A DNA stretch of 60,724 nt, filler included, from Dugesia japonica (Eukaryota): the NCBI GenBank assembly GCA_001938525.1. It is 5 parts of 5 records of this genome, joined end to end, with 100 filler letters (N's around TTAATTAATTAA, not from the genome) between each part and the next. Parts side by side here need not be neighbours in the genome. Positions count along the whole stretch, not along the records: positions 1 to 18,516 come from MQRL01566300.1; 4 more parts are not named here. One strand, written 5' to 3'. Both the position numbers and the translations under genes were made by a program. Positions 1-41,917 of the stretch are shown piece after piece. Below the pieces are notes generated by a model. It was not told the origin of the DNA. It ran no database searches and saw only the letters and a list, made by a program, of their open reading frames with translations. Every line of letters starts with the position of its first letter. The first letter of the stretch is position 1.

Positions 1-2393
1 ATCATTTTAATTTTCATGATTTATTTTATTTAAGTAAAATAAATTATTTATTTTACTTTCGATGTTCATCTTAACTAATTGCTCATTTCTTTGTTCTTTC
101 CAATTTTAATTTCATTGTTTTTCTTCTATTAATTAATCAATTTTATTAATTCTTTCTTTCTTCCAGCATGATTCAATGTGATTTTCTTTATTTTTCCAAA
201 TTAATTGCTGGTNNNNNNNNNNNNNNNNNNNNNNNNNNNNNNNNNNNNNNNNNNNNNNNNNNNNNNNNNNNNNNNNNNNNNNNNNNNNNNNNNNNNNNNN
301 NNNNNNNNNNNNNNNNNNNNNNNNNNNNNNNNNNNNNNNNNNNNNNNNNNNNNNNNNNNNNNNNNNNNNNNNNNNNNNNNNNNNNNNNNNNNNNNNNNNN
401 NNNNNNNNNNNNNNNNNNNNNNNNNNNNNNNNNNNNNNNNNNNNNNNNNNNNNNNNNNNNNNNNNNNNNNNNNNNNNNNNNNNNNNNNNNCCTTATACAA
501 GTTTTGACCTTTTAATCCCATTTTGGTTTTCATAATTCTTCTCTCTGACTTGGCTATGCCCTTCAGGGGTCCGAATTCTTCATTTCCTTTTCTAATGTAG
601 ATCTTTCAAATTTAGTGTCTACCTACGCCATTATATTTGTCTTGATCTGGTGTTTCACCCCAACAATAGTATGATGGAATATATAATTATTAATGATTCA
701 ATTTCAAAGGAATCAGTTCAAGAAGTTGACTTGGCTGATATTCTACGTAAAAAATAATTGATTCATGACAATACACTTGATCAAACGAATAAAATTATAC
801 AAGTATATTATTTAATTTTTTACAATAATTTAATGTGTTTTCAGACTATTAATGCAAACCATCTCAAATGCGACCAAGAAAAATATGTATAATATAGAAA
901 ATTTATTTGTTTTGAAATATATCTTATAATTAAAATCATGTTATTATTTTGTATTTCAATTTTATTTATTGTTGGTTACTATTTTATAAATTTGAATTTG
1001 AATTGGAAGTGTTATTGTTACCAATAATGATATTTTAATATTTAATATTTTTATCAATGTAACTTTATTGTTATTCTAGGTTTTTCAGTGTAAACAGCTT
1101 GTAAAATATTTAACTATTTATATTATAAATACATATAAATACATATTATGAAATCTAATTAAAATTCGAAATTTTACTGTAAAATCTAGAACTTAAATTA
1201 AAATGTACAATTTAGAAATTCAAAGTTAACACCTGAATTTTTAAGCTAAACACGTGTGAAATCAAATTATGAGGAAGCATTTTAGCTATAAATCCATTAG
1301 ACTCTGTATACGTAGTTATTTTATTTTGGACTTGATATTGAATTTTTTACTATTGTCTTCTTCAGGAATATCATATCAGGAATATCATATCAAATTCAAA
1401 GCCATTTGTTCATTTTTACTGAGAAAATTTTAAAACAAAGTTAAAGTATTATGATGCACTACCCCATTTTTCTTACAATAGATATATAAACCCTACATGA
1501 AGGAAGTATTTTCAGAAAAAAAGCGTGCATATCTTCCTAACCTACTTNNNNNNNNNNNNNNNNNNNNNNNNNNNNTTGATCAAAAATTTTGATGCCGCAA
1601 GGGATAGGGTTTTCTGATGCGCTACCTATATTCCAGTGAGAATGAATCATTTTTACAAGTCAGTCTTTTGTACCAATGTATACAGTTTTTATTTTCAGCT
1701 GAATGATATAAAACTATTTTATAAATTATTATTATTTTAATTATAAATATAATTTATAAAAAAAAACGTAATTATATATTATCTTCTCAATGAAACATTT
1801 TTCACAATAAGTTCGTTTGTTATTTTTTGTTATAATTTGTTATTTTGAATTTAATGAATTAATAAATTTAATTTAATTTTATAACTATACGATTATCATT
1901 GACTGTAAAATTTTAAAACTTATTTTAATCCTGCTAACTTATTTTTTAATTCAGTAGTTGATTATTTTTCGTTGTTTCTTTTAAAGAATTAAAAATAGAG
2001 AAGTTATGTGACTATTCTTCTTGTTCTTCAAGTTTAAGACATAATCTTTTGTTTCTATCATCAAGAGGCGTCTTTGGATAACTTTTATTCTTATTCTGGA
2101 AGTTGATTTTGTTTACAATTATTTGAGCGAAAACAGCAATGTTGTTCATCATCAACTTCTAAAACAATAACTAAAATTATAAGAAAAAAAGCACAAACCC
2201 TACAAAGTAATAAAATCGTAAATTTTTTAGGTATCTTTAATATAAAAAACGAATTTGCGAGAACTTACGTGGATATTTTTAAAAAAAATATTCTTAAAAC
2301 TAAAAAATATATAAATTCTGCACTAAAATCGTCGTGTGTTACAAGTGTTTTTGAATAATAGTTTTTGAATTTTTTTTATGGCTATTACTTATG

Positions 2394-3090
2394 TTTTGGT
2401 TGTGGAATAAGTTCTGCATTATTTACATCAAAATCATCACAGTACTTCTCTGTATTGATAGTCTGACCACTTCAAAACAGCTAGTAATAAATAATCCCTT
2501 TCTAATCCCACTAAATGCATAACATCATCTTCTCGGAATGCAAATCTGGTATTGCTGTTGACCCTCACTCACAGGGATCGCACCATGACTGTTGACACTT
2601 AATGTTGTTCTAGACAACCCATTTGTTGTCCCTGGTTATCATCCGCTTCAGAAATGGGTCCAATGATTTCAATTTTAAGAGAGATTCACTAATCGCAATC
2701 GAATCAGAAATGTTCTTTTTGGACAATTCATGCAGGACTATCTTGGAGACTAAAATCTCCAGAATGGAAACCTGCAAACCATCTCTGGCAGGTAACAGAG
2801 TTTATGACTGAGTCACCATAAAAACTGCATATTTCGCGCTTATGCACCATTTACCTTTTTTTTGATTAAAATAAGTAAAACATGCATAAAATACGACTTT
2901 AAATATTCAGTTTGATTTGCTTCATTCATTCTGAAATTACGAATATTATAAAAAAAATTGTTATACAAATAAATTAGCGACAAACATATCCAGATATTAT
3001 TGAAACGATTTGGGATTGATAATTATTTCAATAACATTTGTATTTGAATTTAGTAATTGAAAATATTGTCGAACTTATTCCCCATCCCAA
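2394..3090 (-). mobile_element. Internally deleted mariner transposon remnant
   Basis: Minus strand 2440-2660 reads DPFLKRMITRDNKWVV..KMMLCI*WD*KGIIYY*LF*SGQTINTEKYC, a decayed mariner catalytic region. Imperfect TIRs: ttttggttgtggaataagttc at 2394 and gaacttattccccatcccaa ending at 3090, followed by TA. Confidence 0.85.
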
Positions 3091-3601
3091 TATATGATCA
3101 TTTCTATTAAATACTCAAAAGATTTTTTTCACTGTTTTTAAGTAAATTTAACTCCACTGTTTATAAATGAGAATTACAATAAGATAAAACATATTATTTA
3201 AAGTATCAATTTTTGTTTCATTTATTTCCTAAAATCTGAAATAAATGAAAAAATAATAAAAAAATCTTTTTTTTTTGAATTTTAAAACACTAAAAAATTA
3301 TTGTTTTACTTCTTAAACAAAATCATTTACTTAAACATATATAAAACATATGTATCAATACCCATAATTGATTAAATTTTAATTCAAAAAATGACTTTTG
3401 GTCACTTTTTTAGCATTTCTGCCTACTGTGCGCCGATTACAGCGAAGAACTTCGTGATCCCGTTATTCATCAACTCTTTTATCACCCTTACCTTTATCTT
3501 GAATCCAACATGTTAATTGTCCATATTCTTTTTTATATGCATGTGAAGTTAATACAAAATTTAACATAGTTTAAATTAATAATTGACAACCATTTTTTTT
3601 T

Positions 3602-3646
3602 ATTTGCTATCAATTTCGACGGAATAACCGTCATCGTCAGGCAATT
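3602..3646 (-). ncRNA. Minimal type I hammerhead ribozyme (Penelope-associated)
   Basis: Reverse complement reads ttgc CTGACGA t gacgg-ttatt-ccgtc GAAA ttga TA gcaa. This gives the core boxes, a perfect 5-bp stem II, a 4-bp stem I and the very short stem III typical of Penelope hammerheads. Confidence 0.75.
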
Positions 3647-3720
3647 AAACAAAATTAAAACAAACTTTTTTCAAAGTTTAAATGATTATATAATTTCAAT
3701 TGTGCAATCTCAATAAAAAT

Positions 3721-3990
3721 TCAATAAAATAATTTTAAGAGCGATGGGGAATCCGTCAACTGAACATTCATTTTAGGATTCAATGCTAAAGGTAAAACAA
3801 TTTTAGGATCTGTTTCTACAATCTCAGATGTATCAACACGTGACAAGTCACTATTAAGTTTATTCAAGGTTTCATAAACTAATTTGTCCGTAAACAATTT
3901 AGAATACCCATTATTATGAAGTAAGTCAATTAATTTTTTGAGGCACGACTGTAGTGCCTCATGTAGTCCAACATTTACAATTATTGGCAT
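3721..3990 (-). mobile_element. Penelope-like retroelement C-terminal remnant
   Basis: ORF contains LKKLIDLLHNNGYSKLF (NGYP-type motif after the RT thumb) and IVLP. A hammerhead lies directly downstream on the same strand. Confidence 0.6.
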
Positions 3991-4130
3991 TATTGTTAAA
4001 AATATTAGATTTAATTAAAATTATTATTTCAAAAAATTGAAATAACAGAATACGTTTTGTTTACTCGAGATAGTATTATTCTTATCATACATTAAATACG
4101 ATATACTATTTGTAAAATAATAATAATTAC

Positions 4131-4223
4131 CTCACATCTACTATCTCTGCACATATCAAACAATGCGACAATCATTTTTGGTTCTTTTTTCACTAGAGGT
4201 TCTAATACTTCTTTAATTGACAT
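4131..4223 (-). CDS. Possible exon of a caspase-fold (MALT1/paracaspase-like) gene
   Basis: 93-nt phase-0 segment flanked by ttttag and gtaatt. It encodes MSIKEVLEPLVKKEPKMIVALFDMCRDSRCE, resembling the paracaspase catalytic FLLDMCR motif. Other exons were not resolved. Confidence 0.4.
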
Positions 4224-5841
4224 CTAAAATCCAAAAAAATAAATATATATTTAAAGGATATATATTTTAAGTTATTAAAAATCAGAAATATATCATTCAC
4301 ATAGTGTAGGAGCAAAAGGTGAACTCAAAGCAACTTCATAAACTTGTTTGTACCATTCATTTTTAAACGAAAGATGTATATAAGACATAACAATTTTGGT
4401 AAGACATTTCCTCGGTATGATTGGTTTCAGATGATTTAGTTGATAATTTCCTCTGTGTGGTCAATTTTTGGATAATTTTAGTAAAAGTTGGCTCAACATA
4501 GTAAATTTTGGTCAAATTTAGGTGATTTTGTCTAAGTTGTCAAGTTTTTAAATTTCAGGAAATTTGAGGGGGAACTCTATTTTGTTTAACTATTTAAAAT
4601 TTTTTAAAAATAATTATAATATTTATGGGAATCTGGATGACGAATTCAAATTTAGAAAATTTTTTGGAAACTTTTTATCGAGATTTTTACATCATTCGAT
4701 GCAGAATTTTAATATTTTAATATTTTGTACTACATAAACACTTAAGTTTAAAATTCCTCGAATGGTTCAAAAGAATTCTGGCAAATGCTTAATACTTCTC
4801 GTGACGATTATTGTGCAATTCTTCTGATTTTATCCATTTTACGAAATTATTTTGGTATTTTATATTTAAAATGAGTTTTTTTCCAATTTCGGGATATTTA
4901 ATTGTTTGTGCGAGATTGTCCCGCGCATTTGCATCAATAACTGTAACTGATAAATCAAGACTTTCCTTATTTTCTTAAAATGCAAAGATTCAAAAATCTT
5001 TTTTTTACTAAATTGTTCGTTATTTCAACAAAGTCTTCATCAGTAACGATTGTTCAATTCATTCTAGACATAAAATCATAAATATAAACCCAATTCAAAT
5101 TAATTCTTATATTAATTAACATAATACATAGATATTCATCTTATTTATACTATTTTTGGAACAAAACAAGCTGACAGTTATTTTAGTAAAATTAAACATT
5201 ACATGAAAGTTATGTGAAGAATTTAAAAAAAAAGAATAATACAAAAAAATGAGACTATTAATTATTAATTAATAGTACTTTTAAAGTTAAATGCGAAAGA
5301 TTTCAACAGAAATAATATTATTAGAATAATCTTATTAGAAATGAGTTTATATTTAGTATTGAAATCTGAATAATTATTTAAGGTTTTCAGAAAATTATGT
5401 ATTTAAGAACTTCATAAACAGATGAGATCGATCTATTAACTAATTATGTTAAAATATATAAAGTACATTACAATATATCAACAAAAAATAACGTTTTCAT
5501 CAATCAATTCTAAATTATCTCCCATTTCCTTTCGAAATCCATGTCCAGCAAAATAAAAAAATATNNNNNNNNNNNNNNNNNNNNNNNNNNNNNNNNNNNN
5601 NNNNNNNNNNNNNNNNNNNNNNTTCTTGTACAGATCTCCAAAGCAAAATACCTAAATATGTTAATTTATAAATAATTAATTAAGAACCATTTAAGTTATA
5701 ATTCTTCATTATATCTTTATTAAATTAATGCTAAATTTATAAATATTTACTATTTGGTAGTAGGTAGATTGGTAAATTCAACCCCTCCCCACTTATCGAT
5801 ATATTGATTTACGTTCTGATTGATTATTGATTTTTGAAGTG

Positions 5842-6620
5842 ATTATTATTGATAGGCTAGTTTATTTTGAGTGCTGTGGGAAGGATAGGAAAGGAGGGTT
5901 TGAATTGATCAATCAAAAAGGTGAAGTCATGCTGAACAATTTATCGTATATTTGTTTTAATTAAGTTTAGTTACAGGGAATTTCAAATTTTTCTTTGTCA
6001 GAAAATTTAAAAAATAACAAAAAAAAATAAATAAAAGAAAAAGGAAAGAAAAGAAAAAAAGGAAAAAAACATAAATAAAATTTTAAATTTCCCGCCAAAT
6101 AAATTCCAGTCTGGCATTTCAAATTTTTCTTTGGCGCGAAATTTAAAATTTTGTTAATTTTTTCCCTGTTTTCTTTTTTTATCCTTTTCCTTTTATTTAT
6201 TTTTTTTCTTTGTCTTTCTTTATATTTTAAATTTTTTTAGGTTTCGATGATGTATTTGAATGGATCTTGTAAATCTGTATAGAATGTTTTTGAATAACTA
6301 TTTACAAAAATGTTGTTGTTAGTTACTGTGACAAGTTATCGGTTTTCAGTTTAAAAGGTCTAGTGTTGGAAGTTTTTGGTATTTTCTATGTGATGGTGCG
6401 TGTGTGTAAGTATATATTTTAAAAATGAAAATCGCGACAGAATGGGTGTCGGTTGATGATTTTTGTGTTTAGATAGTAGATTTTACTTGGCCATCGAAAT
6501 CGATCTATAGGTTGCCAAAAGTAACTATGAGCTAAAATGTTTGTGTGTTGTATGTATGCAGCTTCTGTGTTACAAAAATGAGTTTCAAGTATATTTTTAA
6601 GGTTTTATGAGATTGAACAA
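5842..6620. repeat. Left long inverted repeat
   Basis: For example gaaaatcgcgacagaatgggtgtcggttgatgatttttgtg (~6428-6468) is mirrored by cacaaaaatcatcaaccgacacccattctgtcgcgattttc (~8484-8524). Near identity extends over hundreds of bp. Confidence 0.95.
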
Positions 6621-7086
6621 TTATTAAACATGTTATCCACATATCCCTGAGAATATAAATTTTTAAGTCCAAGTATTACTAGTTTTCCTGTTAAGAACAC
6701 ATTTACACATAAAAGGTCATATTTTACCAGTCTTAGAGCAGGAAATAACTCTGATTCAAACCAACAGTTAACTATTCTTGCTAATTTATACAAATTAATT
6801 GAAGCGCAAATTTTAACGACAATTGTTAATGATTATAATTGTAAATTCTTTATATCACAGGGGTTAAAAGCATATGGTTCAAATGGTTTCTTACAACCCA
6901 TTATTCTACATTTTAATGATCTGAAGAATATAATTGTAAACTTATCATTTTGACTTGGAATTTTGGTTTAACTAAAGGAAAACTCATTTTCTTTGTTACT
7001 TCTTGTGATACTTCACCTGTATAGTTAATATTGATTATCATAATTAATGAATTAATAGGGAACATTGAAGTTTTGAGAGAATTCAT
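6605..7086 (-). pseudogene. Divergent TATA-binding-protein (TBP)-like gene; one frameshift (~6950), one internal stop (~6834)
   Basis: Reconstructed as IININYTGEV..FTIIFFRSLKCRIMGCK..IKNLQL*SLTIVVKICASINLYKLA..WFESELFPALRLVKYDLLCVNVFLTGKLVILGLK. This is colinear with the TBP motifs TALIFSSGKMVCTGAK, FKIQNMV..IRLEGL and YEPELFPGL..LIFVSGKVVLTGAK. Confidence 0.7.
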
Positions 7087-7151
7087 TTAATTGATTAGTT
7101 AAAACAAATATAAACAATGTACTAAATTAAAAAAATTAAAGATAAAACAAG

Positions 7152-7703
7152 ATGGAGGAATTAAGAAACAATGCAGTCTATCGAATTGTTAAACCAACTG
7201 GTAGTGGTCTGACTAAATCTGAGTTTTGTAATATTAAAATGAAAATTATAAATGATTTTGATACGAATTGAAGCAAAAAATTGAGACCAGGTGATGTTAT
7301 TGTTGTTGATGATCTGTATCAAGAGGCAAATAAAGAAAGCGATTTCAATAATTTATTCACAAAGATATCGAGACATCATAATGTTACTGTTATATTTATT
7401 ACTCAAAATCTATTTCATCAAGGAGGTAGTCACAAAACCCGCAATTGAAACGTACAAAATTTGGTTCTATTCAAAAATCATTGAGATCAGACTGTTGTTG
7501 ATTTTCTAGCAAGACAAGCATATCCAAATAACAGACAATTTCTTATTGAATAATTTCAAAATGCAACAAAAAATCCTCATGAATATTTATTTCTCGACTT
7601 TACTCAACAATGTCCAATTGACTATAGAGTGATAACTGATATATTTAGTCCAAATGTTATAACAGTGTATAAACAAATAGGAAATTTTCTTAATATTATA
7701 TAA
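7152..7703 (+). pseudogene. Polinton/Maverick-type (poxvirus A32-like, FtsK/HerA) DNA-packaging ATPase
   Basis: One frame with stops at 7269, 7446, 7482 and 7551. Motifs: Walker A-like KPTGSGLT, Walker B VIVVDDL, FTKISRHHNVTVIFITQNLF, LFKNH*D, LARQAYP and ATKNPHEYLFLDF. Confidence 0.9.
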
Positions 7704-7704
7704 A

Positions 7705-7902
7705 ATGGCAAAGTTTAAGAAAATTGTAGTTGATTCAGTTACTGATTGTGATGTTAAACAACGAAAAAAGTCTTTTGTTAAGAAAAAGACACGTTCGTAT
7801 AAGAAAAAATCCCATAAGAAGCAATTCCGTAAGAAAACATTTGCAAATAAAAAAATGCAATTGAATAAGTTTAAAAACCTTACAAAAAGAAGTGGAAAGT
7901 AA
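7705..7902 (+). CDS. Small Lys/Arg-rich basic protein (possible viral core/DNA-condensing protein)
   Basis: ATG lies 1 nt after the ATPase stop codon. The protein is very basic (KKKTRSYKKKSHKKQFRKK). Function is inferred only. Confidence 0.5.
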   Translation: MAKFKKIVVDSVTDCDVKQRKKSFVKKKTRSYKKKSHKKQFRKKTFANKKMQLNKFKNLTKRSGK

Positions 7903-8331
7903 CTAAAAAATAGAAAATGGATATCATTATAAACAATTCATTGCTATCTGTGCTTTATTGAAATAAAAATGAAATTAGAATTAGATTGTTTCAATTTTTT
8001 ATTTGTAATTTTCCTTGTAATCTTCATTGTCTTTTTTGCATATCTCAATTTTATTCAACATTTCATATTGCCGGAACGAGGTTTTCTTCAAGTCTGTCAT
8101 ATTTTTAACAAAATGAAATATAATTTAAATTTTCTCCTTATATACTTTTGATTTGTGTGTATGTGTTTAAAAAATATTAAAATGTTGTAATAAAAAATGT
8201 TTATTATTGTAAATAGTTTTTTCTTTTTTATAAGTGGTAAATATGTAAAAATATTAATCAATGCAATAAGGATGCAACACAGATGCAACACAGATGCAAC
8301 ACGCAATCACCCAAAATCATATCTATAATAA

Positions 8332-8953
8332 TGTTCAATTTCATAAAACCTTAAAAATATACTTGAAACTCATTTTTGTAACACAGAAGCTGCATGCATA
8401 CAACACACAAACATTTTAGCTCATAGTTACTTTTGGCAACCTATAGATCGATTTCGATGACCAAGTAAAATCTACTATTTAAACACAAAAATCATCAACC
8501 GACACCCATTCTGTCGCGATTTTCATTTTTAAAATATATACTTACACACACGCACCATCACATAGAAAATACCAAAAACTTCCAACACTAGACCTTTTAA
8601 ACTGAAAACCGATAACTTGTCACAGTAACTAACAACAACATTTTTGTAAATAGTTATTCAAAAACATTCTATACAGATTTACAAGATCCATTCAAATACA
8701 TCATCGAAACCTAAAAAAATTTAAAAAATAAAAAAAGACAAAGAATAAAATAAATAACAGAAAAAGAAAAAAGGGAAAAAATAAAATAAAATTGTAAATT
8801 TCGCGCCAAAGAAAAATTTGAAATTTCCCGTAACTAGGCTTAATTAAAACAAATATACGATAGATTGGTCAACATGACCTCACTTTTTTGATTGATCAAT
8901 TCAAACCCTCCTCTTACCCCAGCACTCAAAACAAACTAGTCTATCAATAATAA
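8332..8953. repeat. Right long inverted repeat
   Basis: Reverse complement of 5842-6620, lacking a ~135-bp segment present in the left copy. Confidence 0.95.
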
Positions 8954-9739
8954 TTTATATAAGTAAATATACTTTTTTAAAACAAAAAGATGCGTCATGA
9001 ATTTTCACACAACCTAATATCTGATAATACATCTTTTAATCTGGCATGTATAAATAGAAAACAAGAAAAATGTTAAAAATTATGTACCGTAAATCCTAAT
9101 TGGCGTAAAACACGTTCCAAATCGAATATATCAGTTTCCGGTGCTTTCAATTTTTGATTCTTTCGATAATTCATGATACCAACCAGTAACGCTATACGCT
9201 TCACTCCATCTAAAAAATTTGGACTACATTTTAGTCTAATAATCTAAAGATCACAATTTTAAATTTATAATTTATATATCGAATAATGTAACATTTATAA
9301 AAAAGATGTCTTACATTTTTTATGTGCAGGAATGATTTCTGGTATAAATAATGTCAATTAAAATCTCTGTGGAAAAATAAAGCAGATGGGAAAAATAATT
9401 GGTTGAAAATAAAGATCTAGTGTGTATAAACTTATAGAATGTAATATATAGCACAATAAGAAGTTATTTAAAACAAATTTTGATTAAAAATTTAAAGACG
9501 GTCACTAATCAAAATTTTAAAATGAGTCCTCATATCCTTATATTTAAGAATTTAACTGTATGTTTCTCATTATCACATCATTTTTTGGAGAACGCTGTAA
9601 CAATCAAGTTTAATATTTAAATCATAACGATTAAATTAAAAATTTCATATAAATAAAAGCTGGAAAATTTAGTTATCTTTGAACGAAGTGAAACACCGTG
9701 AAACAAATATAACAAAAAAGTACATTACAAAAAGCACTT

Positions 9740-10640
9740 GCAATCTTCTTCTCAGCTTTGAGGATAATTTTAGAAGATACATCTATGGTTCAGATATATA
9801 GACGATATTTTCTTTGTTACTGATTCTCCTTACGAAAATATTTTAGAACTAGCCAATAGAATTTAATGATAACATCAAATTCACTTTAGAGAAGTCAATC
9901 GACTTTCAGATTCCTTTTCAGGACACCTTAATCCAAAAGAAATCTGGTAAATTAATAATTAACCACTTATATATGAAACAATTTCACAGTGCACATATAT
10001 TACACTGGAGTAGTAATCCTACCATCAGACAAATAATTGGAATAATCAAGGGAGAAAGAATAAGAGCTGAAAGACTATTCAAATGAAGAAATAAGATTAA
10101 CTTCTCTCAAGTTGATAAAAAATAAATTTCTAAATAATGGCTATCCAAATAGAATTGTATCTAAATATCTATCCTCGAATACAAAATTTAATAAAATCAA
10201 ACAAAAGACAAACACTAATGAGTAATGTAGCCAAATCATGCAAAATATAATTAAAAAATCGAAACTAAAACACAATCCAAGAATTATATTTAAAACGCAA
10301 GCACCTTTGGGTATCCTATTACAGAAACCAAGGCAGACTTTTTGTGGTCTCAAATGCATTTGTGATTGTAGAAATATATGCAATAAAAAAAATATCACTT
10401 ACAAAATAACATGCACCTCATGTAAAGATACATATATAGGAGAAACAAGCAGAACCATCCGTACAAAAATGTGAAGTCTTCAAACACTTTTAAAACAAAC
10501 ATAATATTTTAACAGAAAATCATCATATTACAAAAACATTAGGAACAAGCTACATTTCTACACTTAACAGAAAAAAACATGAACAAATATTAATTAAAGA
10601 GGAGAAACCTAAGATTAACGTGATTCTCAATAATTACAAT
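9740..10640 (+). mobile_element. 5'-truncated Penelope-like retroelement (RT + GIY-YIG), decayed
   Basis: RT motifs WFRYIDDIFF (~9786), IKFTLE, IPFQD, LHWSS and FLNNGYP. GIY-YIG region CNKKNITYKITCTSCKDTYIGETSRT (ORF 10238-10474). Confidence 0.9.
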
Positions 10641-13600
10641 AATTAAAAGTTTTCAATAAATAAAATTTTTTTTTAAAGATTCTCAATAATAAAAAAAATT
10701 AATTAAATAAAATTAGTAAAAAATTAAAGTTTTAATATTGTAATATTTTAATCTTAATAAAAAAGATTTTTTGAGATTTTTAGATTATCAATAATTAAAA
10801 TAATTAATAAATTTTAAAAAAAATTAGTAAAAAATTAGAGTTTAAATATTGTAATATTTTAATCTTAATAAAAAACGAATTTTTGAGATTTAATTTTAAA
10901 ATAAAAAATTATACTTTAAATAAACCAATAAAATTTCGATAAAAGAGAAATAATTTTGTAGCAGAGATCTATTGTCCTATTGAATAAATCGAAAAGTCAT
11001 CATTCCTGAACGAAGACAAGTGTCAAAAATTTGAAATTATTTACAAATACATTTAATTTTGATCGAAGCCTTTTCTTTATTTTAATAAAATCTCAAATGC
11101 GATCAATGGTTAAGTCCAACAATTATTCCCGCAATAATTGTAATTATAAAAAAATTATAATCATTATTTAAGTAACAACATTAACCAGAACAAAAAATCC
11201 AGAGGTATCCTAGTATAGAAAGTTCAGAACTGATATCTAAAAGTTTAGAAAATCAATAAGATTCAAATTAAATTAATACAAAACATTGTCCATTCCGAAT
11301 TCATCCCGAAAAGAAAAAATACCGCAATGGAACTAAATTGCTTAATTCACAAAAATAATTTTTTTAAATGAAAAATAAATTAATAAAAATATCCTTTCTT
11401 TTTGCAAAAAAAAGAAAATAATTGAAAATAAACTATTTTGAAAATATGAAAACTACGGTTTAAATAAATACGGAGAATATAGACAGAACTCAAAAAACCT
11501 TCACGAAGTAAATTAAAAAATCAACCAATCTGAATATTCCACAATAATAGACCAATCTGAATTCCTAACGAGCTTAAAAATTCAAGATACCTAAAAAATT
11601 GAAAATGCCAAATTAAAAATTGTATTTTTCAATTTCACACTAATAGAGAAGTTGTAATTCAATAAATTTTGGTGAGTAAAAATATTCAACTGCAAAATAT
11701 TTTCACTTCAGCAAAAGTATTTCGATATAAGAGGTTATTAATGAACAAAATCCCAAGGGGGATTACGAAGAAGAAAATTCAACAAGAACCACAAATATTT
11801 AGAATAATTCTGTAGTAACAACAATGAGGAGGGGCCAACAAAAAGATAAATTACGAATTGATCAAATAGAAGAAATTTAAATATTTGTGACAATCTGCTA
11901 AAAGTACAAAAAAGAATAAATAAATTAATTGAACACAAAGGAGAACATTTTTGGTTCAAAAATTTAAACAAAGAATTTAAATAAAAAGCAACCAACATAG
12001 TAATGCAACTTAAAAGAAATATGAAGCAGATAATTCACGAAAAGATAAGAATTGAAAATTTGAAATATTTTGCTGTTTGTGCTGCCATCATTCTTATGCC
12101 CATTAATGATGAATGATAATGAATATTGCTAAAACATAAATAATGCAAGATATCTGTTCTTACAATATATGTTTTATTACCCAAGATTGTATAAACTTTT
12201 TAATGTCTCATTATAAATAATGCAAGTAAAGATTTGGGATAATGAAGGTTTAAGTCACGAAGTATAGTAAAGTATATTTTAGTAAGCAAAAAAATCTACA
12301 GTCTCTAATTAGAAATGTTGATAATTCAAATTTTTTCAGTATCTCAAATTTTTTAATTAAAATTTTATAAAGTAATTACTATTATAATTTTTTTATGTAT
12401 AGAATTTTTTGAAAAATCGAGTTAATAAAAATAACGTATTTTCATTAATTCGTATTTCTTGACTCCTTTAAAAATATTTTTATGAAAAATGGATCAAGAA
12501 TGCTAATAATTTTATTTTAAGCTTATCCGATGTAAATAATGATATTTATGAATCTATTAAACGGCTAAAAAAATTGTTTATATGAATTAAAGGGTAAGAA
12601 TTATAAGCAGGAAAGAATCAAAGAATATTTTCAATAAATATATTGTGGTTTTTATTCGTTAATTTGAAATTTTTGATAATTCGACATGATTTTCTAATCC
12701 CCAAGAAATACGAATTAAAAAGGTTCGATTGTATTAAATAATGATCTTTAATAACTGTTTGTTAAAAGTTTTTTGCTGCTAAATCTTTTTTTAGCAAATT
12801 TTATTTTGATTTATCATTTTTTTTACACGTGAACTTAAATATATTTTATTTTTCTTGCAAATATCACCATTACAATTCGGACAATAATAATTATACCATA
12901 GTTTTTGTAATGAAAAGTCTAAAGGTGATTGTGTTATGTATTAAATCTGTGTTTATATTTTCCAACAGTTTTGATCGGCTTAACTATCTGATAATTAATT
13001 AATGGTAATATGAATTACTATATTAGTTTATTATTTTGTTCTGTTTATATTCAGGTTAAAAGAGAAAGATATTTGGTAACAAAATAATACATATTGAGAC
13101 TGTGAGTATAGATTCATGAATTTCGGATGTCTGAGATTTTTTAATTTTTATATTTAATATTAAGATGGGTTTTTTTTGAAATTTTTAAAATATAAAATTT
13201 TAAAAATAATAAGGTTGAAAAATAAATAAATATATATGTAAAACAAAGATATTTTAAATAAAAGTTAAAATTTTACATGGTGTTAAATAATAAAATTTTA
13301 AAAAATTATTTTCTAAAATGAGTTTTAAAAATAATTATTTTGGAATTGAAAAAACCAAAAAAAAAATATTTTATTAAGATTTCTCAGATTATTTGTTTGA
13401 AATTTGTGAATTGTTATTTCATATTTTCATTTTTTAAGAAAAGATTTGTAATAATCAATAAACAATTTATGGAGATTTGTGAGACTTTAAATTTAACTAA
13501 TAGAGACATTATCAAAATGCGATACTTTTTAAAAATCTCTGCTACTGAGTATCGTTTGTTTTGCAAAAGTTCTAATATTCATTAGTAACCTTAAAATAGT

Positions 13601-13977
13601 AATAGTAAAATTTTCTACTAAAATATAAATATTGTTGTTTTTAATATCTCACTCCCTTATTAAAAATTCATGGATCCGTCACTGTAAAAAAGTACAATTT
13701 ATCTCAAAGGTTTGATAATTTAATTAAATAATAGTTTCATTTGTTGATTATTATATTTTAAATATCTATCAGAGGTAGAATTACCTGGTTTCTCTGCAGG
13801 TACCGGAGGGATTTCTGAAGAAATTAATTTGTTCGGCTGCAAAATAAATAAATTTATAATATATCAAAGTTATTATTAATTTAAGGATTCATTTATAATT
13901 TATCTTCTCTCATCCTTAACATATACGAAACCAGATTCTACTTTTAAATTATACATTTCTAAATAATTCAAGTCCAC

Positions 13978-14672
13978 CGTGACCCGACAATTGGGCACAA
14001 AAAATATTTTTAGTAAAATAATAAAATAAAAAAATTATTAACAGAAGAATTCAAGATTATGTTGATCTCAAATAATCAAACAAAACAATCTAATCAATTT
14101 TAAACAATTGCAAATTAGCCACGTGACGCAAATATCGTAACATATCATCTTCCTCGCGATATCCTTGAACAACTATTGATACCTAGAACAACATATAATA
14201 TGTCATATTTTTTCTTAGTTTCGGTCGGCCTTATCGTACTTTGATCAATATGTTTTCGTTTTGCTATGTCAATTGCAAGACCATCAAACAAAGTCTATAC
14301 ATTTGGATGGCTGTGATGAAAAATGGCATTCAGTGAGTTATGAATTCCTTCACAGCAATTGATTGTTCTTGGAGACTTCTCAATTGCAGCCGTATAGTCA
14401 TTCCACATTCCCATTGGAAACTGTGACTCTCTTTCTGCAGCACCTTTAATATGTCAAAAAAAAGGATGTTAAAATACTGTTGTACCTATCTTCATCTAGA
14501 AAATTAATTGCAAGGGTATCAAAGACTTTATAATTTTTTTTAATATTCTTTAAATCGCTGTGATTATTTAATATAATAATATAATATAAACTCAATACTA
14601 CCTTATTACTAAAAATATTTATTGCCCAAATATCTTGTGCCTAATTATCCTGTGCCCAATTATCATACAAAC
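13978..14672 (-). mobile_element. Internally deleted MULE transposon with 9-bp TSD
   Basis: TSD caagtccac at 13969-13977 and 14673-14681. Inverted termini contain aattgggcaca / tgtgcccaatt. The minus strand reads ERESQFPMGMWND..SPRTINCCEGIHNSLNAIFHHSHP, homologous to ORF 36644-37144. Confidence 0.85.
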
Positions 14673-16379
14673 CAAGTCCACATATCGAACAATAAAAAAA
14701 CGTTTATTAATAAATGATAGAATATAGACAAAAATTCATGTTTCAATAAAATCTAAAATATCACAAGAAAAATACAAGAAAAAAAATATATATCACAGCA
14801 TTAATAACAATAAATTCTATATCAATTTTCTTCCAATTCTTTCTTTCTTTTACTGTGAATTTTCTAAATAAATTTAACACCAATTTTGAGATTCTAATTG
14901 TCGCTTCATCTTGAACAATTCAGTTTAATAGGACTGTATTATAAAGCTGTATAATTCACATTATCAAAATGAATTTTATTTTATATATTAATGCTTAATA
15001 ATTCCTTCATATTTTTCTTGTTTTGCATCATTGCGTTGAAATCTAGAAATCAAATCGCAAAGCAAACAGATGGACAGAGTCTATAAACAATTACAGTCTT
15101 TCAGTTAATTATCGCTTCAAAATGAAAATATTTAGAGACTTGGAACAAGATTCAAAGCCCATAATTTCAAATATGTTAAGTTTATAGTTTTGATTTTAGA
15201 CTAAAATTCATTTAGAAAAAGGCGTAGTAGACGGAGGAAATCTCTATACTGATTCTCAAGAACAACAGCTGAAATTCTTAATACGCATTAAATTTTAAAA
15301 ATTGAATTAAACATTAAATCTTGATTATCAAATAATAAATAGCACACTTGAGGTATACAAGTACTGATCTGCAGAGAAAGTGATGAAGACGATCGATCCA
15401 TAGATGGATTTCCAAATTCGCACATTGCAATGGTATGCAACTGTTACTGTATGTATAAAAGTAATATTTCTTTAGAATACTTGTTTCCAGTAAATAAAAT
15501 TTTATGATGTATTCATTAAATTTCCTACTTAACAATATTATACTTTCATTTTGATATCGCCCCCTCCCTTGAAAAATTCCTGGATCCGTCACTGTCAGTG
15601 TACATTGTAAGATACCTGTAATTGTTGGCAACGGTTCTTTAATAAGTCTATAAAAACTGAAAGTTTATTAAACGATTTAAAATAAAAAAAATTCACGAAA
15701 AAGTATGTTACAATCCAATAAAATAGTAGACTAAAAATAGATTCAGAAAAATTTTTTATAATTAAATCTTAATAACTTGATCTTCGTAATTTATTTGAAA
15801 TCAATGATTCAGTCAGTTTTAAGTGAACTGCTGTTAACTTTTTATATTAAATTATGCTAATTATATTTGTGTATCGGCGATTGTTTAACTTTTTCTATGC
15901 AAGCTATGCAAAGTTATTTGAATTATAGAATTCATCGAATAGTTTGATTAATTTTTAGTTAATAATTAAATTACTAAGTCTTATTTTTTCGATTTATGCT
16001 CCAATGGGTCAATTTAATAATGTAAACATGTTATAATTATGAAAATATTTTAATACAAAAATAAAACTACAGTAAATGAGTGAAAACTTTAGTTACAAAA
16101 TCGTTATAAGTGATCCAACGTTCCATATATTAGCTTTCAACTTTTTAATGTAGATCGCTAATATTCTAGATCAATTAAATCATTATATCATAAGATATTG
16201 AACAAAAGAAATAAACAGTATCGATCTTCGATACATTTAATATAAGATTTCATAAAATTTATTAAGTAACATGTTCGGTACAGTGTGGGTCACTGATGAA
16301 AAAGTCGAAAATTAAATTTGTAATAATGAAACAAGTTTTGGAGACAACTTGAAAGGGAGATCAAATGACAAGGGCCTTA

Positions 16380-17210
16380 AATACTCTGAAGATTAAAGAT
16401 GATCAACGGTTATTAAAAATAATTGGAAATAATGAAGTTTTATTCATGATAGATATATGTGATGCAGGATGCACACATTTGATAAAACTCAAAATAATCA
16501 CAAGTGGTGAACCAATCAATGTAAAACTCTACAAGTAACCACTGATTTTAAAAGTTAAAATTGAAGAGGCAATCCAAAACCGTTTTGAAAATAATATTAT
16601 CCATAAATGAAAATCTACATGGAATACAGCACTGATTTGTGTTTGGAAAAGGAAAATAAGGACATAAGAATATGTTTGGATCTCAAACAATTGGATGCTG
16701 TAACAAAAAAACAAAACTTTTGTATGCTTAACGTCTATGAAATGCTGAACAAGTTGGATAGAATAATATATTTCGGTTCAATAGATTTTGAAAATTTGTA
16801 CTATCAGGTAGAGCTCGCAAAATCTCTGGAAAAAACGGCGTTTTCAACGAAACATGGACAGTATTATCCAAAAGAATACCATTTAGCATAACGACAGCAA
16901 CTAAAGAAAAGACAAAGATATTAGAAACTACCAATTTGTTTGAAGTTATATTCACAAATATATGTGAGCCAATGCAAGAAAATAGTTGACGGAAAATACA
17001 CATTCTTGGAATAATATCCTAGTTCAATAAATATCTAATTCTTAAAGCATTATCTAAACAAGATGAGGAAACAGTCCATAAAGTTATTTTTAAGAAGTGG
17101 ATATTGAGATTGGTATCCCAAAGAGAGATAAGACTAGATTGTGAAAAAACCTTTGAATCCAGAAAGTTTGCACAAAAGCTAGATATTAAACTTTGTTTTT
17201 CGAGTCAAAC
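16380..17210 (+). mobile_element. Ty3/Gypsy remnant (RT and integrase fragments)
   Basis: WNTALICVWK..KDIRICLDLKQL..SIDFENLYYQVEL..KTAFSTKHGQY, followed by integrase-like KWIL../GIPKEIRLDC. Related to the element at 22.2-27.3 kb. Confidence 0.85.
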
Positions 17211-18516
17211 AAAAGTTTCTAAAATTTATAAATAAACAAATAAGATTCAATCAATTGCATACTGATAAAAAATAAAAGCACTTAAAACATTCAAGAATCA
17301 TACATTTCCTCACAGTAGTATTTTAATATATTTTACATCGCGATGTTATAATATTTATTATATACACATATAAATAAATAAAGGTACATAAAATTATAAC
17401 ACACACAATACAAAAGTTAGTTACATTCAAAATTTTGTCCCAATTTCCTATAAACAATGTCTGAAAAGCGACAAATTACTCTCAACTACAAAGTAAATTT
17501 TATAAAAAAATTTTGATTATTTTAAAATTTATAATTTTAGAAAATAAACAATATTTTTGATACAATGATTAACAATAACTAAATTTTGAAAAAGAAGATT
17601 AATAATGTAAATTTATTAAACTTATGAAATAAGAAGGCATAACCGAAATATTGAACAATCGATGAAAATAGAGGAACATCTTATTTAATCTTTGCTTGTG
17701 AAAAAAATTTCTATCAAACAAATTTTAGTTATTATAAGAATTTAAATTTTTTCTTTTAAGAATTATGATGCTTATATTGACGATGCTTTTTGATAATATT
17801 CTTGTTGGTGATGATAACCGTTAGTTGTTATTAATTTTTAATTAATGTTTTGTAATAAAAAAATGAATTAGATTAATTAATGAAAAAGATGTTAACTTTG
17901 TTTAAATAACATCAAATTAAATTTTTATTAACACTTTAAATAAATTTTACTTAGTAATTCTGATTTAAATACTCAAGTGTATACAAAAGATTCCCTTAAC
18001 ATAATTAGCGGTATAACATGACAAGTCAACTTTGGAAGAATTGATCATATATTTGAACTTCTCATTATTCAACAAAGAACCGATATACTTAGCTTGGTAA
18101 TTAACACTCTCGAGGATTTCAAGATTATTGAAAGTTATTAAGAAACTTAGTTTAATAGTGCATGTTTTATAATATGTTTTTATATATTATAAAATATTAC
18201 TGTATAATATTCAGTATTTGGCGGTTATTTATTTGACTAATTGAGTGAAATTCCTATGACAGAACTATAATTGCTAAAAACTATACACAAGATTTTAATT
18301 AATTATTTTTTACTCTTAAATCTTAATATCAAAAAAGTTCGATTATCAATTTTAATCAACTTAAACTTTACAGATAAATATACATTAAATTTCAGTTACA
18401 TCTCCATTATCATCTGAGAAATTATGGAATATGGAGCTGGTAGCTAATATTAATCCGAAGGATAAAATCAAAATATGTATTATCAATATAACCATAATTT
18501 CAAAGATGGAAATTGC

Positions 18517-18787: not shown

Positions 18788-20222
18788 TTATTCGGGATTT
18801 TTGGGAAGAAAACTATTAATAGACGATTCTCGTGAATGTTTTGCTTCCAAGGCAAATAGTAAACAAGAAAATATACGATACAGCAGTATAAACGGGGAAA
18901 TAGTAGCAGACAAATCCAGTAGTAATATCCGGATATCAAATCGATAATTTTTCACATTCCGAAATTCATGGTTGAATAAATCACTGATAAAAGTTATTCC
19001 ATTAAATAAACTAAGTATAAGTAATAAATTATGAATTTTTTGATTTCTACTTTCAAATTTATATTGTATATTGATTAATATTAAAATCGATTGGAAAAAT
19101 GTCGCAATGAAAAGTAATCCACTACAAATAAAATCCAGAATCAATGACACCAGATTTTCATCACGAGAATAATAAAATGAACATGTTAAATGTATCATAT
19201 TTACCATTATAAATACAAATTTACTGATAGAACCAATCGATATTAATAAATGTCTCATAATGATTTCATTGTATTTCTTTCTGTGAGTATATTGAACATT
19301 TGTTAGAAATATTATAGAAACATATAATGCAAAAATTATCTGAAAAATATCTACAAACGATTGAATATAATACGGATTTTTGATAAATTTACGAACAGCT
19401 AATAATATAAAATTCGAAATAAATAAAATAACACCAAAAAAATATTTTCTATAAGATTTATCAACTGAATTTTCATTTGTTAAACAATTAAAACGTATTT
19501 CGATTTTTTGATAAATAAAATGAAAATGCGTTTGTAATGGGTTTATAATGTATGGAATCATAGAAATTCCAAGAATTATTATTGCGATTTTAATATTATT
19601 TGAAAGACTCGCATATAAATGAGTAGCCCAAGTAAATTCGGCAGTAATATTAATTGAACATACACTTTTAAAACGATTATCATTGAATTTTCTTTGAAAG
19701 GCCGATTGAAATTCTTTAGTCAAAAAAAGAACAGCATTAAAAGTAGCTAAATTCAACAAAGAAGACAACGAAATGAGTAAAGTTTGTGAATTTATCAAAT
19801 TGATTATTGGTAATTCACCAGTATCATTTGAATTTAAAATATTGACAATAAGAAAAATCATAGATAAAAAAAGTAAAGAAATTGACAAGTTAAATGATAA
19901 ATTAATATAACTATCACACGTGATAATGTAATATGTGAATACAGCTGAAAAAATAAATGAAGGAATGAGAAATGTGATTATCGGAAAACAAATCAAAAAT
20001 ACAACTTTTGGATTTTCTGTTGGATTTTTTTGAAAGAAATTTCGATGATTATAATTGATTTTTGCACTAATAAAAACTAGAATCGTGTTAAAAAGAAATA
20101 TTACCGTTGTCAATGATATAATAATTTGCCAATATCCGATTTCTTCAACGACGTAAGGAACTATTCTCACAGAGTAAATCATATAGTTAAAAACAACTCC
20201 AACACTAATTGAACATAGGAAA
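18788..20222 (-). CDS. Divergent otopetrin-family multi-pass membrane protein (5' end in gap)
   Basis: Uninterrupted ORF of at least 464 aa, open into the N gap, with ~10 hydrophobic segments. Motif order matches otopetrins: LNLATFN, SVD....YFFGVILF, FQSILI, LLILSLFNGI and PFILLYRIFSCLL..E. Confidence 0.6.
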
Positions 20223-20442
20223 NNNNNNNNNNNNNNNNNNNNNNNNNNNNNNNNNNNNNNNNNNNNNNNNNNNNNNNNNNNNNNNNNNNNNNNNNNNNNN
20301 NNNNATAGATTTCAATTTATATTAAAGTATTGAAATAATAAAAATTTAATCACCAATTATTCCAATTGAATCGAAACGAACAAAGATGGAAGGATGTGTG
20401 CATATTTACAAACATTTGTAGTTATGCAGATTTGTTAATCTT

Positions 20443-22230: not shown

Positions 22231-25200
22231 TGTTATTTGAGTTTGGTAAACTCATCGTATCGTCAATATCAAAATTCGAATTCATTACAATACTTTATTA
22301 AAATCAAAACTATGACATCATTAGTTAANNNNNNNNNNNNNNNNNNNNNNNNNNNNNNNNNNNNNNNNNNNNNNNNNNNNNNNNNNNNNNNNNNNNNNTA
22401 TTTAAATTATATTTGATTTTAAAAAAATACGTTACAATAGAAATTTAATTTTATATTTTATTCTTTTTAAAATATATTTGATTTATATGATTTAAAAATA
22501 TATTTGATTTTAAAAAAATAAATTACAATAAAAATCTTTTATTCATTTCATTTTATATTTTAAAAAATGCTTAAATTTTTGTAATTTATTTTATAGTTTA
22601 TTTTCTTGATATAATTTTAAATATACTTTTGATTTTACTAAATTCCGTTTTTAAAGATAAAAANTTTTAAATCTTTTCTTTTTAAAAACTATCTTATCCC
22701 CCTTTTTAAGAAATTTTTTGATATTCTCTACGTTTCTTTCAAGACTTTTTCCGTTTGTATCTTCTGTCCGAATGTAACGTCTGTCATGAATGTTCCACTT
22801 GATATTATAGGGTCCTTCATAACTATCTTGGCTCTTGTTTCTTGTTTCAGCTTTCACGAAGACATCATCACCGATCTCGAATTGTCTTTTTGTTAATATT
22901 TCTTCTTGTTCTTTACGCACTCTTTGATTATCTTTTTCATACCATTTTATTTAATTTTAAAAAATACCTTACAATAGAAATTGAATTTTATATTTTATTA
23001 TTTTTAAAATATATTTGATTGAAAAAAATACATTAAAATAAAATGCTTTTATTCATTTCATTTTATATTTTAAAAAATCCTTAAATTTTAGTAATTTATT
23101 TTAAAGTTTATTTTCTTGATATAATTTTAAATATACTTTTGATTTTACTAAATTCCGCTTTTAAAGACAAAAATTTTTAAATCTTTTCTTTTAAAAAACT
23201 ATCTTATATCCCCTTTTTTTAAGAATTTTTTTGATCTTCTCTACGTTTCCTTCGAGACTTTTTTGGTTTGTATGATCATAACCGATCTCGATTTGTCTTT
23301 TGGTTAATATTTATTCTTTTTATCTGTGCACTCTTTGGGCATTAGTGTCATACCATTTTTCTCTGCTTATTCTCTTCCCAAATATTATTTCAGCAGGGCT
23401 TTTCCCAATAGTTTTCTATTTTGTAGCTTTTAAAGTAAATTCTACCTCTGGCAACACATCTGCTCAATCTAACGTTTTGCTTTCTTTAAGCGTTGCATTA
23501 ATCAGATCCCGCATAGTTCGAAAATGTCTCTCGATTTGTCCATTTGTGTTATGATGATATGGACTCGAAAACCTGAAGGTAATGCCATATTCATCTGCAA
23601 AATCTTTCATTGATTTAGACTAAAAAGCTCTTCCACAGTCAACTCGAATTTCTCTCGGAGACCCGAATTTTAATATCCACTGCTTCAATATTGCTTTCTG
23701 TATGATATTTTCATCTTGTCTTGTCATTGCTATCTAGGCTACATACTTACTGCATTGGTCTATTATACCGAGAACATATTTTTCCGACCTTTTGTCTCCG
23801 GCCGTGGTTTACACACAATTATAAATAAAAGTTCAAACATTTCGGCTGGCTGCGTCTTTTTCGTTTCTTCCTTCGTTTTTTTGTCAACACTTTAGCTTTT
23901 TGACATATTATACAACTTCGGAACAACTCTTGTACTTTGCTCCTAAATGTTTTGCGTTATATTTATGCTTCATATACGCTGGTACATTTTCTGCTCCAGC
24001 ATGACATAAAAGATGGTGTATCCTTTTTATAACTTCTTCTACTTTATCATCAGGTATCCATGTTCCTTCATCATTCTCACCAAAATTGACTTGTTTATCT
24101 TGAAAATCTACTGTATTTAACATCCTTGTCTTTAATTTTCCATTTTTGGGATCCTCATGTGATATAAGACATTTTTTACACGTACCGCATTCATTCCTTG
24201 ACAACATATCCGCATTGGTATGAAGCGATTCTTTTCTATATTCCAATTTTATATCTAAACTGCTCAAATAATTAATCCAAGTTTAAAACTGTGATGTGAT
24301 CGGCTTCTTGGTATTTAGCATAAAAGTGATGGCTTTATGGTCTGTTCTGAGAATAAATCTCTTTCCTTATAAGTAATGTTTGACATGAAAACAAAAGTAG
24401 TAAATTGCGAGCAATTCTTTCCGTGTAGTACAATATCCTTTCTAATGACTCGTCATTGCGTGTGACCCATATGCAATTACTCTTTCTTGCCCGTTGTTGT
24501 CATTTTGAGATAGGACTGCCCCAATCGTATTGAAACTCGCATCCGTGTCTAAAATAAATCCTCTATTTATATCTGGAAAACATAATATTGGAGACATCAT
24601 TAGTGTTTCTTTCATTCCATTAAAAACTTCTTCTAATTCTTTCGCCCATTCAATTTTCTTGTTACTTGACCCACTAAACAGCAGTTCCAGTAATCTAGCT
24701 TTCTTTGAATAATCTTTAATAAACTTGCGATAGAATTGCAAATTCCTGAAAAGCTTCTCATTTTCTTAACGCAGTTTGGTTTACCAAAGTTCTTAATTGC
24801 TTCTATTTTAGTTGGATCTGTTTTGACACCTTCTTTACTAATAACGTGTCCTAAACTTTTGATCTCCTTTCTCATGAATTGGCATTTTCCGGATTAACTC
24901 TAAGACCAGCCTTCTTAATTTCTGTTAATACTCTATTTATTATTTCATATTGTTACTCCTTTGTTTCGGTAAATATGAGAATATCATCTAGATAAAACAT
25001 TGCTCCTTTTATTTTTTCGATTACTTTATTCATCATTTCCTGGAACGTACCTGGTGCTGCTGCAATTCCAAAAGGCATTCTATTGAAACAAAATTGCTCT
25101 TGTTTGATCGAAAATGCCGTCTTTTCTTGAGAAATTTTACTGAGTTTCACTTGGTAGTATGCATTTCCCAAGTCTATGGAGCTAAAATACTACGTACCTT

Positions 25201-27310: not shown

Positions 27311-27776
27311 ACAAATATTATTCGTTGAACAAACAAAATAAAATTCCGTGTTTTAATTGGTGATCTTTTTTCTAAAATTAAAAATTGAAAGTTTTATTAA
27401 TTAAGATTAATTTTTAAAAATTTGCGATAAAATTTTAACTACTTTAAAATTTTATTTATTAAAAAGTTAAACTTATATTCAATAATTTTATTTTATCCTT
27501 AAATAAAATTGTTGAGATGCTTTGGGGATTGTTGCCAAAGCAAATCAGCAATAGCGTGAGTTTAGTAGTATTCAAATAAGTANNNNNNNNNNNNNNNNNN
27601 NNNNNNNNNNNNNNNNNNNNNNNNNNTTAATTAATTAANNNNNNNNNNNNNNNNNNNNNNNNNNNNNNNNNNNNNNNNNNNNATGAGGAAATTTCTACTA
27701 GCAAAACCATGATTCGAGAAGTTCATGAAATAATTTTAAAATCTAAAATTGAAAATACAAATTTTGATAAAAAAAA

Positions 27777-30700: not shown

Positions 30701-31552
30701 TAAAACAGAATATAGAAAACATCTATTATCATTATTAATTATATTTACTACTCCCTTTTTAATAAATGGTAACTTGATATAAGTCCCTGTGGCCACTACT
30801 GATTTATAACGTTCAAGAGTAAATGTAAAATTTAAAATAAATTCTACACTCTACCCACTTTCTGATTTTGCAACATTAGTTGTATATTTATCTATATCTT
30901 CAATTAATTTTGCTATGGCCGGATCAATTTCTATAAACATTATTATTTTTTTATTATCAGCATAAGATCTAAATTCTCTTTTCACTTCTTTTCCCTCTTC
31001 AGTTTTTGTATATAAAGCTTATGAAGAAAGTCTAGTATTTATTTGTGCTCTTAAATTAAAAAACCTTATTGTTATTTCTTTTAACTCATCATGGTAAGAA
31101 GTCAATACTTTAACTTCCTCGTCAGAAATGTCTTTTGTAGACTCAACTTTACTTTCTTTAAAATATTGTATTTTATAACATTTGTATGAATTAATTCCAA
31201 AAACAGTCATAAGTTCTGCAGTCTCTTGTGCTATTTCTAAATTTGGAAGTGCTCTTTTATGATTTCTACTTGCATAATGTGTTTTTGCTGCACCCTGATT
31301 TGAAAATATTGTATTACAAATTTCGCATGTTAAATTTACATCCTCAGGATTCCAACATACTGATGACATTTTATGTTTTCGATAATGCATTGGTGATCTA
31401 AAAATTGTATGACACTTTGGACATGAGGTTGGATTATAAACATGCATATTTTTTATATGCGTTTTCAGTGCTCCTTTTCTTTTTAATATTTTACTACAGT
31501 GTGGACATGTGAATCTTTCTACTACCATTTTATAAAGATAAACTTTAATCAT
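27777..31552 (-). pseudogene. Polinton/adintovirus-type protein-primed family B DNA polymerase with N-terminal C2H2 zinc fingers
   Basis: Colinear motifs: YIKLP..VVNI.NNDNRCFLYSVLA, APFVVYADFE, GPAHEICN, FHNAGGYD, DVIILADFFEDFR, GIRGGVS, YIDQNSLY..M..PLPWG, FPLAPE, KMTNNAF, MKDE, KGI and DDK. Several stops and frameshifts. Confidence 0.92.
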
Positions 31553-31609
31553 ATTTATAAAATAATGGTGGTAATATTTTTTCCTAGAATGAGAGGATCC
31601 TCTTTAAGA

Positions 31610-33740: not shown

Positions 33741-33781
33741 TAAATTTAATTATAATTATAATTATTATAATTATAATAGAC

Positions 33782-38518: not shown

Positions 38519-41691
<3,173 letters not shown>

Positions 41692-41917
41692 NNNNNNNNN
41701 NNNNNNNNNNNNNNNNNNNNNNNNNNNNNNNNNNNTTAATTAATTAANNNNNNNNNNNNNNNNNNNNNNNNNNNNNNNNNNNNNNNNNNNNTATTATTAA
41801 AACCTAAACTAATAATACCTAAACTAGTTGGTTCAATTTTGTTTCACGATAATATTATTTAATTATTTAATAATTATTTAAGAATTATTAAGAATTATTT
41901 AATAATGAAAACCTACT

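Follow-up and report, generated by a model that had tools for sequence, protein, structure and literature searches.

A conserved miniature TBP gene of Polintons, represented by a decayed copy in Dugesia japonica, and its likely role in late-gene transcription

The DNA analyzed here (the window) is a 60,724-nt stretch of the Dugesia japonica assembly GCA_001938525.1, made up of five parts joined by fillers of 100 N, with positions 1–18,516 corresponding to MQRL01566300.1. The host genome is that of an AT-rich eukaryote with introns. A TBP-like gene lies within a ∼3.1-kb, inverted-repeat-bounded unit of Polinton/adintovirus type, with the following features:

5649–9084, minus strand: host intron holding the whole element (RNA joint 5648–9085, CT..AC ends)
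5759–6626, no strand assigned: left terminal-inverted-repeat arm, from its pairing with the right arm
6605–7041, minus strand: TBP-like pseudogene (Polinton-family TBP), from Pfam TBP, relatives, tree and residues
6833–6835, minus strand: in-frame stop in the second repeat, from six-frame translation
6950–6963, minus strand: frameshift region of the first repeat, placed only roughly, the 5′ and 3′ parts being in different frames
7100–7106, minus strand: TGTTTTA motif upstream of the TBP gene, from the window sequence and a 7-mer scan
7110–7116, plus strand: ATAAACA box, 42 nt before the ATPase ATG, from the motif scan
7152–7703, plus strand: broken Polinton packaging ATPase, from similarity to the ATPase of locus L008
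7669–7675, plus strand: ATAAACA box in the 3′ end of the ATPase, 36 nt before the basic ORF, from the motif scan
7705–7902, plus strand: small Lys-rich ORF, in the position taken after the ATPase by a basic ORF in relatives
7929–7935, plus strand: ATAAACA box where relatives have the next (core-like) gene ahead, from the motif scan
8326–8954, no strand assigned: right terminal-inverted-repeat arm, from its pairing with the left arm

The terminal inverted repeats have arms of about 630–780 nt that are 85–95% alike, with 6116–6626 pairing with 8326–8824 at 95% and 5842–6012 with 8792–8954 at 85%; the outer portion of the left arm has no partner on the right. On the left, AGTAG at 5759 is a possible terminus; the right end is missing. 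No clean high-copy terminus was found for the window element, and no credible target-site duplication, only AT-rich chance matches. Between the arms there are just the TBP-like gene, the broken ATPase and the basic ORF, with no pPolB, integrase or capsid gene, and the unit is therefore a deletion remnant rather than an autonomous element. The ATPase shares 65% identity with residues 31–208 of the L008 ATPase (E = 7e-70), has four internal stops, and has lost its Walker A motif; it stands head-to-head with the TBP gene, a layout matched in L060. Basic ORFs resembling the one at 7705–7902, for which no Pfam family was found, occupy the equivalent place in L015, L050, and L060.

The RNA joint is backed by 49 reads of RNA run X22, in which splicing of the intron removes the element too, and the exon at 9085–9210 scores 27.7 bits against Pfam Peptidase_C14 (cut-off 21.4). 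The surrounding host gene (window 5481–9210, minus strand) has a caspase-family domain and a FYFAGHG motif, and is presumably a MALT1-like paracaspase. E2F-like sites (TTTCCCGCCAAA, TTTCGCGCCAAA) occur in the repeat arms at window positions 6088–6099, 6117–6141, and 8799–8824, one of them followed by a CHR-like TTTGAAAT, an order that we take to be a DREAM-type arrangement. Elsewhere the window holds decayed Polinton-type pPolB fragments at 27777–31603 (minus strand, with an upstream zinc-finger region) and 33121–33790 (plus strand); decayed LTR-retrotransposon gag-pol remnants at 23282–27352 and 48039–50184 (both minus strand), with integrase-like matches and, in the second, a reverse transcriptase match; the exons of a host sirtuin (SIR2) gene at 38647–42493 (plus strand); and, at 18788–20311 (minus strand), a long hydrophobic ORF (≥470 aa) for which many membrane spans are predicted and no Pfam family passes the cut-off.

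Both TBP half-repeats claimed in an earlier note on this DNA are present, on the minus strand and in two frames, and the stop and frameshift it had placed at ∼6834 and ∼6950 were located at 6833–6835 and about 6950–6963. With the stop read as X, the 3′ piece scores 27.8 bits against Pfam TBP (PF00352; cut-off 22.9); its best solved-structure match is the TBP 1mp9 (E = 8.8e-05), and of the 34 matches to solved structures at E ≤ 1, all but one are TBP-containing chains. The intronless frame of ∼160 codons that the note had drawn to 7086 gives way to a pseudogene. Its start was probably the ATG at 7041, since this is where the closest intact relatives have their first residue; position 7086 would be an upstream in-frame Met, and the gene would thus span 437 nt, or about 145 codons. 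Outside the break the copy has family-type residues at its DNA-facing positions and retains both of the TFIIB glutamates, E186 and E188. It is a decayed, non-autonomous fossil, and the gene is dead. Contigs of related copies numbered 9,111 and 10,974 in two host DNA runs, and summed contig depth over the TBP/ATPase region was about 10,000× that of the flanks, which is not a copy number and is taken to mean very many copies.

A search with the window piece returned 46 relatives at 37–67% identity, most of ∼145–200 aa. Intact family proteins have ∼145–175 aa and score 57–65 bits against Pfam TBP. A profile of 43 sequences retrieved 59 representatives at E ≤ 1e-30 among 50%-identity clusters, and the family profile search yielded 74 metagenome loci; L001 (giant-virus-like, from the viral collection) and L071–L075 (weak, judged cellular) were left out of the synteny and motif counts. 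A Polinton core gene (ATPase, integrase, capsid, protease, or pPolB) lies beside the TBP gene in 33 of the 69 kept loci, a share that becomes 24 of 30 among loci of at least 3 kb and 13 of 15 among those of at least 5 kb. The earlier note did not know TBP homologues as standard Polinton cargo; the gene proves to be a conserved part of a wide set of Polintons. Three loci (L008, L015, and L076) carry pPolB, rve integrase, ATPase, capsid, and protease together with the TBP gene, and two more (L051 and L058) have, with the TBP gene, all the core genes except a detected protease. There are at least three gene orders among the TBP loci. Pfam confirmed the ATPase, rve integrase, C5 protease, pPolB, and PLA2 in these loci, the capsid match being weak; penton, pX, core, Exo-like, and SSB-like, as used below, are presumptive names that we assigned from position and general knowledge. 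An ATPase-only search of genome_contigs gave three loci, two of them with a TBP gene. TBP-less Polintons were found neither in viral_contigs, where the queries were one capsid protein and alignments of the capsid and of the ATPase, nor in phage records. Two TBP-bearing loci also carry what is possibly element cargo, a ubiquitin-conjugating (E2) gene at L008:225–719 (minus strand) and a dual-specificity phosphatase gene at L011:4008–4316 (plus strand). The Polinton contigs L076, L077, and L078 were binned in bacterial MAGs, most likely through contamination.

Across 28 pairs of intact genes more than 70% identical, taken from metagenome loci rather than from host copies as the note had envisaged, dN/dS had a median of 0.20 and a maximum of 0.51, and on these values the family is under purifying selection. 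A quick maximum-likelihood tree of 65 rows, comprising 52 family members and 13 cellular/giant-virus TBPs (the host's own TBP not among them; L071, L072, L075, L008, and L063 also missing), separated the family from the other TBPs with an SH-aLRT of 100 on a long stem. The window copy falls among close members of this element-borne family (SH-aLRT 98–99), away from the cellular TBPs.

The TBP fold suspected by the note was recovered by both Foldseek and VIA-align in a model of an intact relative, P0003 (AF2, pLDDT 94.5). Foldseek gave 44 PDB matches at E ≤ 0.001, and the first 39 PDB matches listed are all TBP; VIA-align of the model with TBP gave Z = 13.6 and an rmsd of 2.6 over 148 aligned residues. 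Viral TBPs match the model less well than TBP does. P0003 is thus modeled as the two-lobed, pseudo-symmetric TBP saddle.

We mapped 213 non-redundant relatives (from 234 of 135–200 aa) onto canonical TBP, with residue numbers that we take to be those of yeast TBP and that are consistent with the mapping. The list of 16 DNA-contact positions is that of Table 1 in PMC12529657, and E186 and E188 contact TFIIB according to PMC7221094, in the portions of these papers covered. N69, F116, F190, P191, and F207 are retained in 185–211 of the 213 relatives. Among the intercalating phenylalanines, F116 is kept in 208, F190 and F207 in 211 each, and F99 in only 1. The canonical residue is left in at most one relative at seven positions, F99, A101, V122, T124, N159, V161, and L205 (in none at V122, T124, N159, and L205), and V71 and T215 are mostly altered; 12 outgroup TBPs have the canonical residue in 8–12 of 12 at the seven replaced positions. 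The replacements are near-fixed, with R122 in 207/213, M124 and N205 in 211/213, and P99 in 200/213, as are the TFIIB glutamates (E186 in 197/213, E188 in 211/213). Judged from these residues, the family does not carry the four-Phe plus canonical minor-groove signature of a TATA-binding TBP. Lys or Arg at the basic N-lobe patch occurs in just 9, 11, and 4 of the 213 relatives at positions 133, 138, and 145, respectively, and the patch for TFIIA, Mot1, TAF1, and Brf1 is gone from the family. Less than half of N-lobe helix region H1 is filled in 174 relatives, and less than half of H2 in 173; the first repeat is therefore short, as the note had seen, but as a family trait and not through decay of the window copy.

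Relative to known systems, the family shares with cellular TBP, TRF, and archaeal TBP the saddle, N69, F116, F190, P191, F207, and E186/E188, and differs from them in its identity of about 20%, its mostly deleted N-lobe H1/H2, the lost basic patch, and the seven replaced DNA-facing residues, including F99. With Polintons, Mavericks, and adintoviruses, the related TBP loci share the ATPase, rve integrase, capsid, C5 protease, pPolB, and PLA2. In the portion covered, PMC12529657 describes the vTBP of beta- and gammaherpesviruses (KSHV ORF24), which serves late genes through host Pol II at a TATT late box. This late-gene vTBP would be the nearest working analogue of the Polinton protein, the likeness being that of a viral TBP whose DNA face is more polar and which goes with a non-canonical TATA-like box (PMC12529657, same portion), and it does not imply kinship between the two. 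As far as that portion goes, ORF24 is a multidomain protein of 752 aa that acts in a viral complex and has all four phenylalanines, whereas the Polinton TBP is a bare core of ∼150 aa; ORF24 is also predicted, according to a heading in the same paper, to be incompatible with TFIIB binding, whereas the Polinton TBP retains the TFIIB glutamates. The TBPs of giant viruses (NCLDV), according to the part of PMC7221094 covered, retain the DNA-binding signature, diverge at the TFIIB signature, and are accompanied by their own TFIIB. They have lost the N-lobe regulator signature, as has the Polinton family, but show the opposite pattern at the DNA and TFIIB signatures. No TFIIB or RNA polymerase gene was seen in the scanned ORFs of the TBP loci. 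In Starrett et al. (2021; PMC8502044), "TBP" appears as a figure-legend label for MELD viruses, and as a label only, with no family, residue, or promoter analysis in the portion of the text and supplement covered. Beyond this label we found no published account of the TBP family or of the box described below, though figures, subscription journals, and preprint supplements may hold one.

Upstream of the genes linked to TBP lies a box, ATAAAC(A/G), with a peak 30–40 nt before the ATG. The base ahead of it is T in 67% and C in 27% of cases, and its last base is G in 17%. Its core came out on top in an unbiased 6-mer scan of the upstream regions (58/81). Counted at −70 to −15 of the ATG after removal of near-duplicates, against a background of 2.7% of 9,104 windows, the box precedes the ATPase in 12 of 15 cases, the core gene in 15 of 15, the MCP in 6 of 9, PLA2 in 7 of 8, and the Exo-like gene in 8 of 12. 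It is less frequent before the penton (5/12), integrase (4/11), and SSB-like (4/14) genes, and least so before pX (1/6), the protease (1/4), and the polymerase (1/4). Antisense boxes in the same interval numbered zero in every gene class. The TBP gene itself has the box upstream in 1 of 47 cases and TATAWAW in 26 of 47 (background 6.7%); TGTTTTA is the top 7-mer upstream of the TBP genes of L002–L070 (12/47) and marks a subset of TBP genes that includes the window copy. These elements thus have two promoter classes, with an imperfect split of the box between gene classes. The loci are related, so the counts are not independent and P values overstate their independence.

In the window element the three boxes are at the expected places, and no core-like gene was found there after the box at 7929–7935. 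In two held-out loci, L076 and L077, 12 of the 15 other genes have the box no more than 100 nt away, compared with neither TBP gene (0/2) and not the polymerase gene (0/1). In L078, a different Polinton with no TBP gene detected, none of five genes has the box; as one partial locus of 5.5 kb this TBP-less control is weak. L065, with a TBP fragment and a different ATPase, has no box in 5.6 kb. The box is often embedded in the end of the preceding gene, as in 20 of 20 related ATPase ends (two of these loci with an altered peptide) and in 6 of 6 pX ends, vs. 28 of 290 occurrences of the same dipeptide in gene bodies, and more weakly at MCP (3/6) and protease (4/8) ends. In gene bodies the ATPase-type peptide Y/H-K-Q/R, used as a control, contains the motif in 14 of 22 cases. 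By these counts, the embedded box is conserved at the DNA level in coding ends.

We put a probability of roughly 0.6 on the reading that this is a conserved Polinton miniature TBP gene whose protein is a likely late-gene switch, acting at the ATAAAC(A/G) box through host Pol II. The TBP-like gene would be transcribed first, from a host-type promoter, and its protein would then bind the elements' box through the rewired saddle, with the retained glutamates bringing in host TFIIB and Pol II at the genes for packaging and capsid; the two promoter classes would correspond to early and late in time. Loss of the basic N-lobe patch may free the protein from control by Mot1/BTAF1, TFIIA, and TAF1. Position 7 of the box, a C, belongs to the half of the site that the N lobe of TBP reads, and this lobe has the largest changes; of these, V122R, F99P, T124M, and V71N may accommodate the invariant base. 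In the part of PMC1636458 covered, TBPm3 is described as discriminating against a C in the box's downstream half. The loss of one intercalating Phe could weaken DNA binding. RNA reads of run X22 over the TBP/ATPase region, which are mostly 85–95% alike with 6 of 910 at ≥99%, come from both strands, and such both-strand reads over related host copies count against the late-gene-switch reading. Between the two roles that the earlier note had offered, redirection of host Pol II to element promoters and action as a decoy, the first gains indirect support from the box and the TFIIB glutamates, and the second is less favored.

A host factor could also read the box, which looks like a TATA variant as well as a Forkhead site; 1qn3, among the listed Foldseek matches, is a structure of wild-type TBP on a C(−25) variant DNA. 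The box might be recognized by host TBP or by a factor such as a Forkhead protein, with the element protein having another function on element DNA, for example repression of early promoters or help with replication or packaging. TATAAAC is one base off canonical TATA, T is the first base in 67% of boxes, ATAAACA fits the core of a Forkhead site, and the weakness of the TBP-less control leaves room for this explanation. We consider it unlikely, as CATAAAC makes up 27% of the boxes, G is the last base in 17%, the box lies strictly in sense orientation with its peak 30–40 nt before the ATG, the TBP gene's own promoter is without it, and the TFIIB glutamates are nearly invariant. A protein with no site of its own, which ties up host TFIIB or sits on host TATA boxes and so damps host transcription, would fit the TFIIB stirrup being the best-conserved surface and the loss of one intercalating Phe and several canonical contacts. 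Yet R122, M124, and N205 are fixed at 97–99% on the DNA face, a pattern that points to selection for a new interface and not to decay, and a matching new box exists; such a decoy is accordingly improbable. Although the window copy is intronless and broken, we reject as exceedingly improbable the reading that it derives from host TBP/TRF2, as a neutral retrocopy or a captured fragment, and lies by chance in a repeat, given its 66% identity to intact family members, its place apart from the cellular TBPs in a tree with 13 cellular/giant-virus TBPs, and a family that is under purifying selection and syntenic with Polinton genes.

The Polinton TBP family is thus a viral TBP variant with a concrete, testable promoter partner. 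On the late-gene-switch reading, a broad animal Polinton branch would run a two-step program in which one altered-specificity TBP of ∼150 residues reads (T/C)ATAAAC(A/G), uses host TFIIB, and escapes the TBP regulators, a wider proposal that we hold at even odds. How Polinton capsid genes are expressed, and whether the elements make particles in animals, is, to our knowledge, largely an open question, and a dedicated TBP with a matching box makes the matter of capsid expression directly testable. The box and TBP pair would serve as a marker for the late phase and predicts which promoters respond. If the reading is true, no smaller viral late-transcription system would be known; it would also be a natural orthogonal TBP–promoter pair working on host TFIIB, the reverse of the giant-virus TBP pattern, and a sign of a regulated virion-making phase in these elements.
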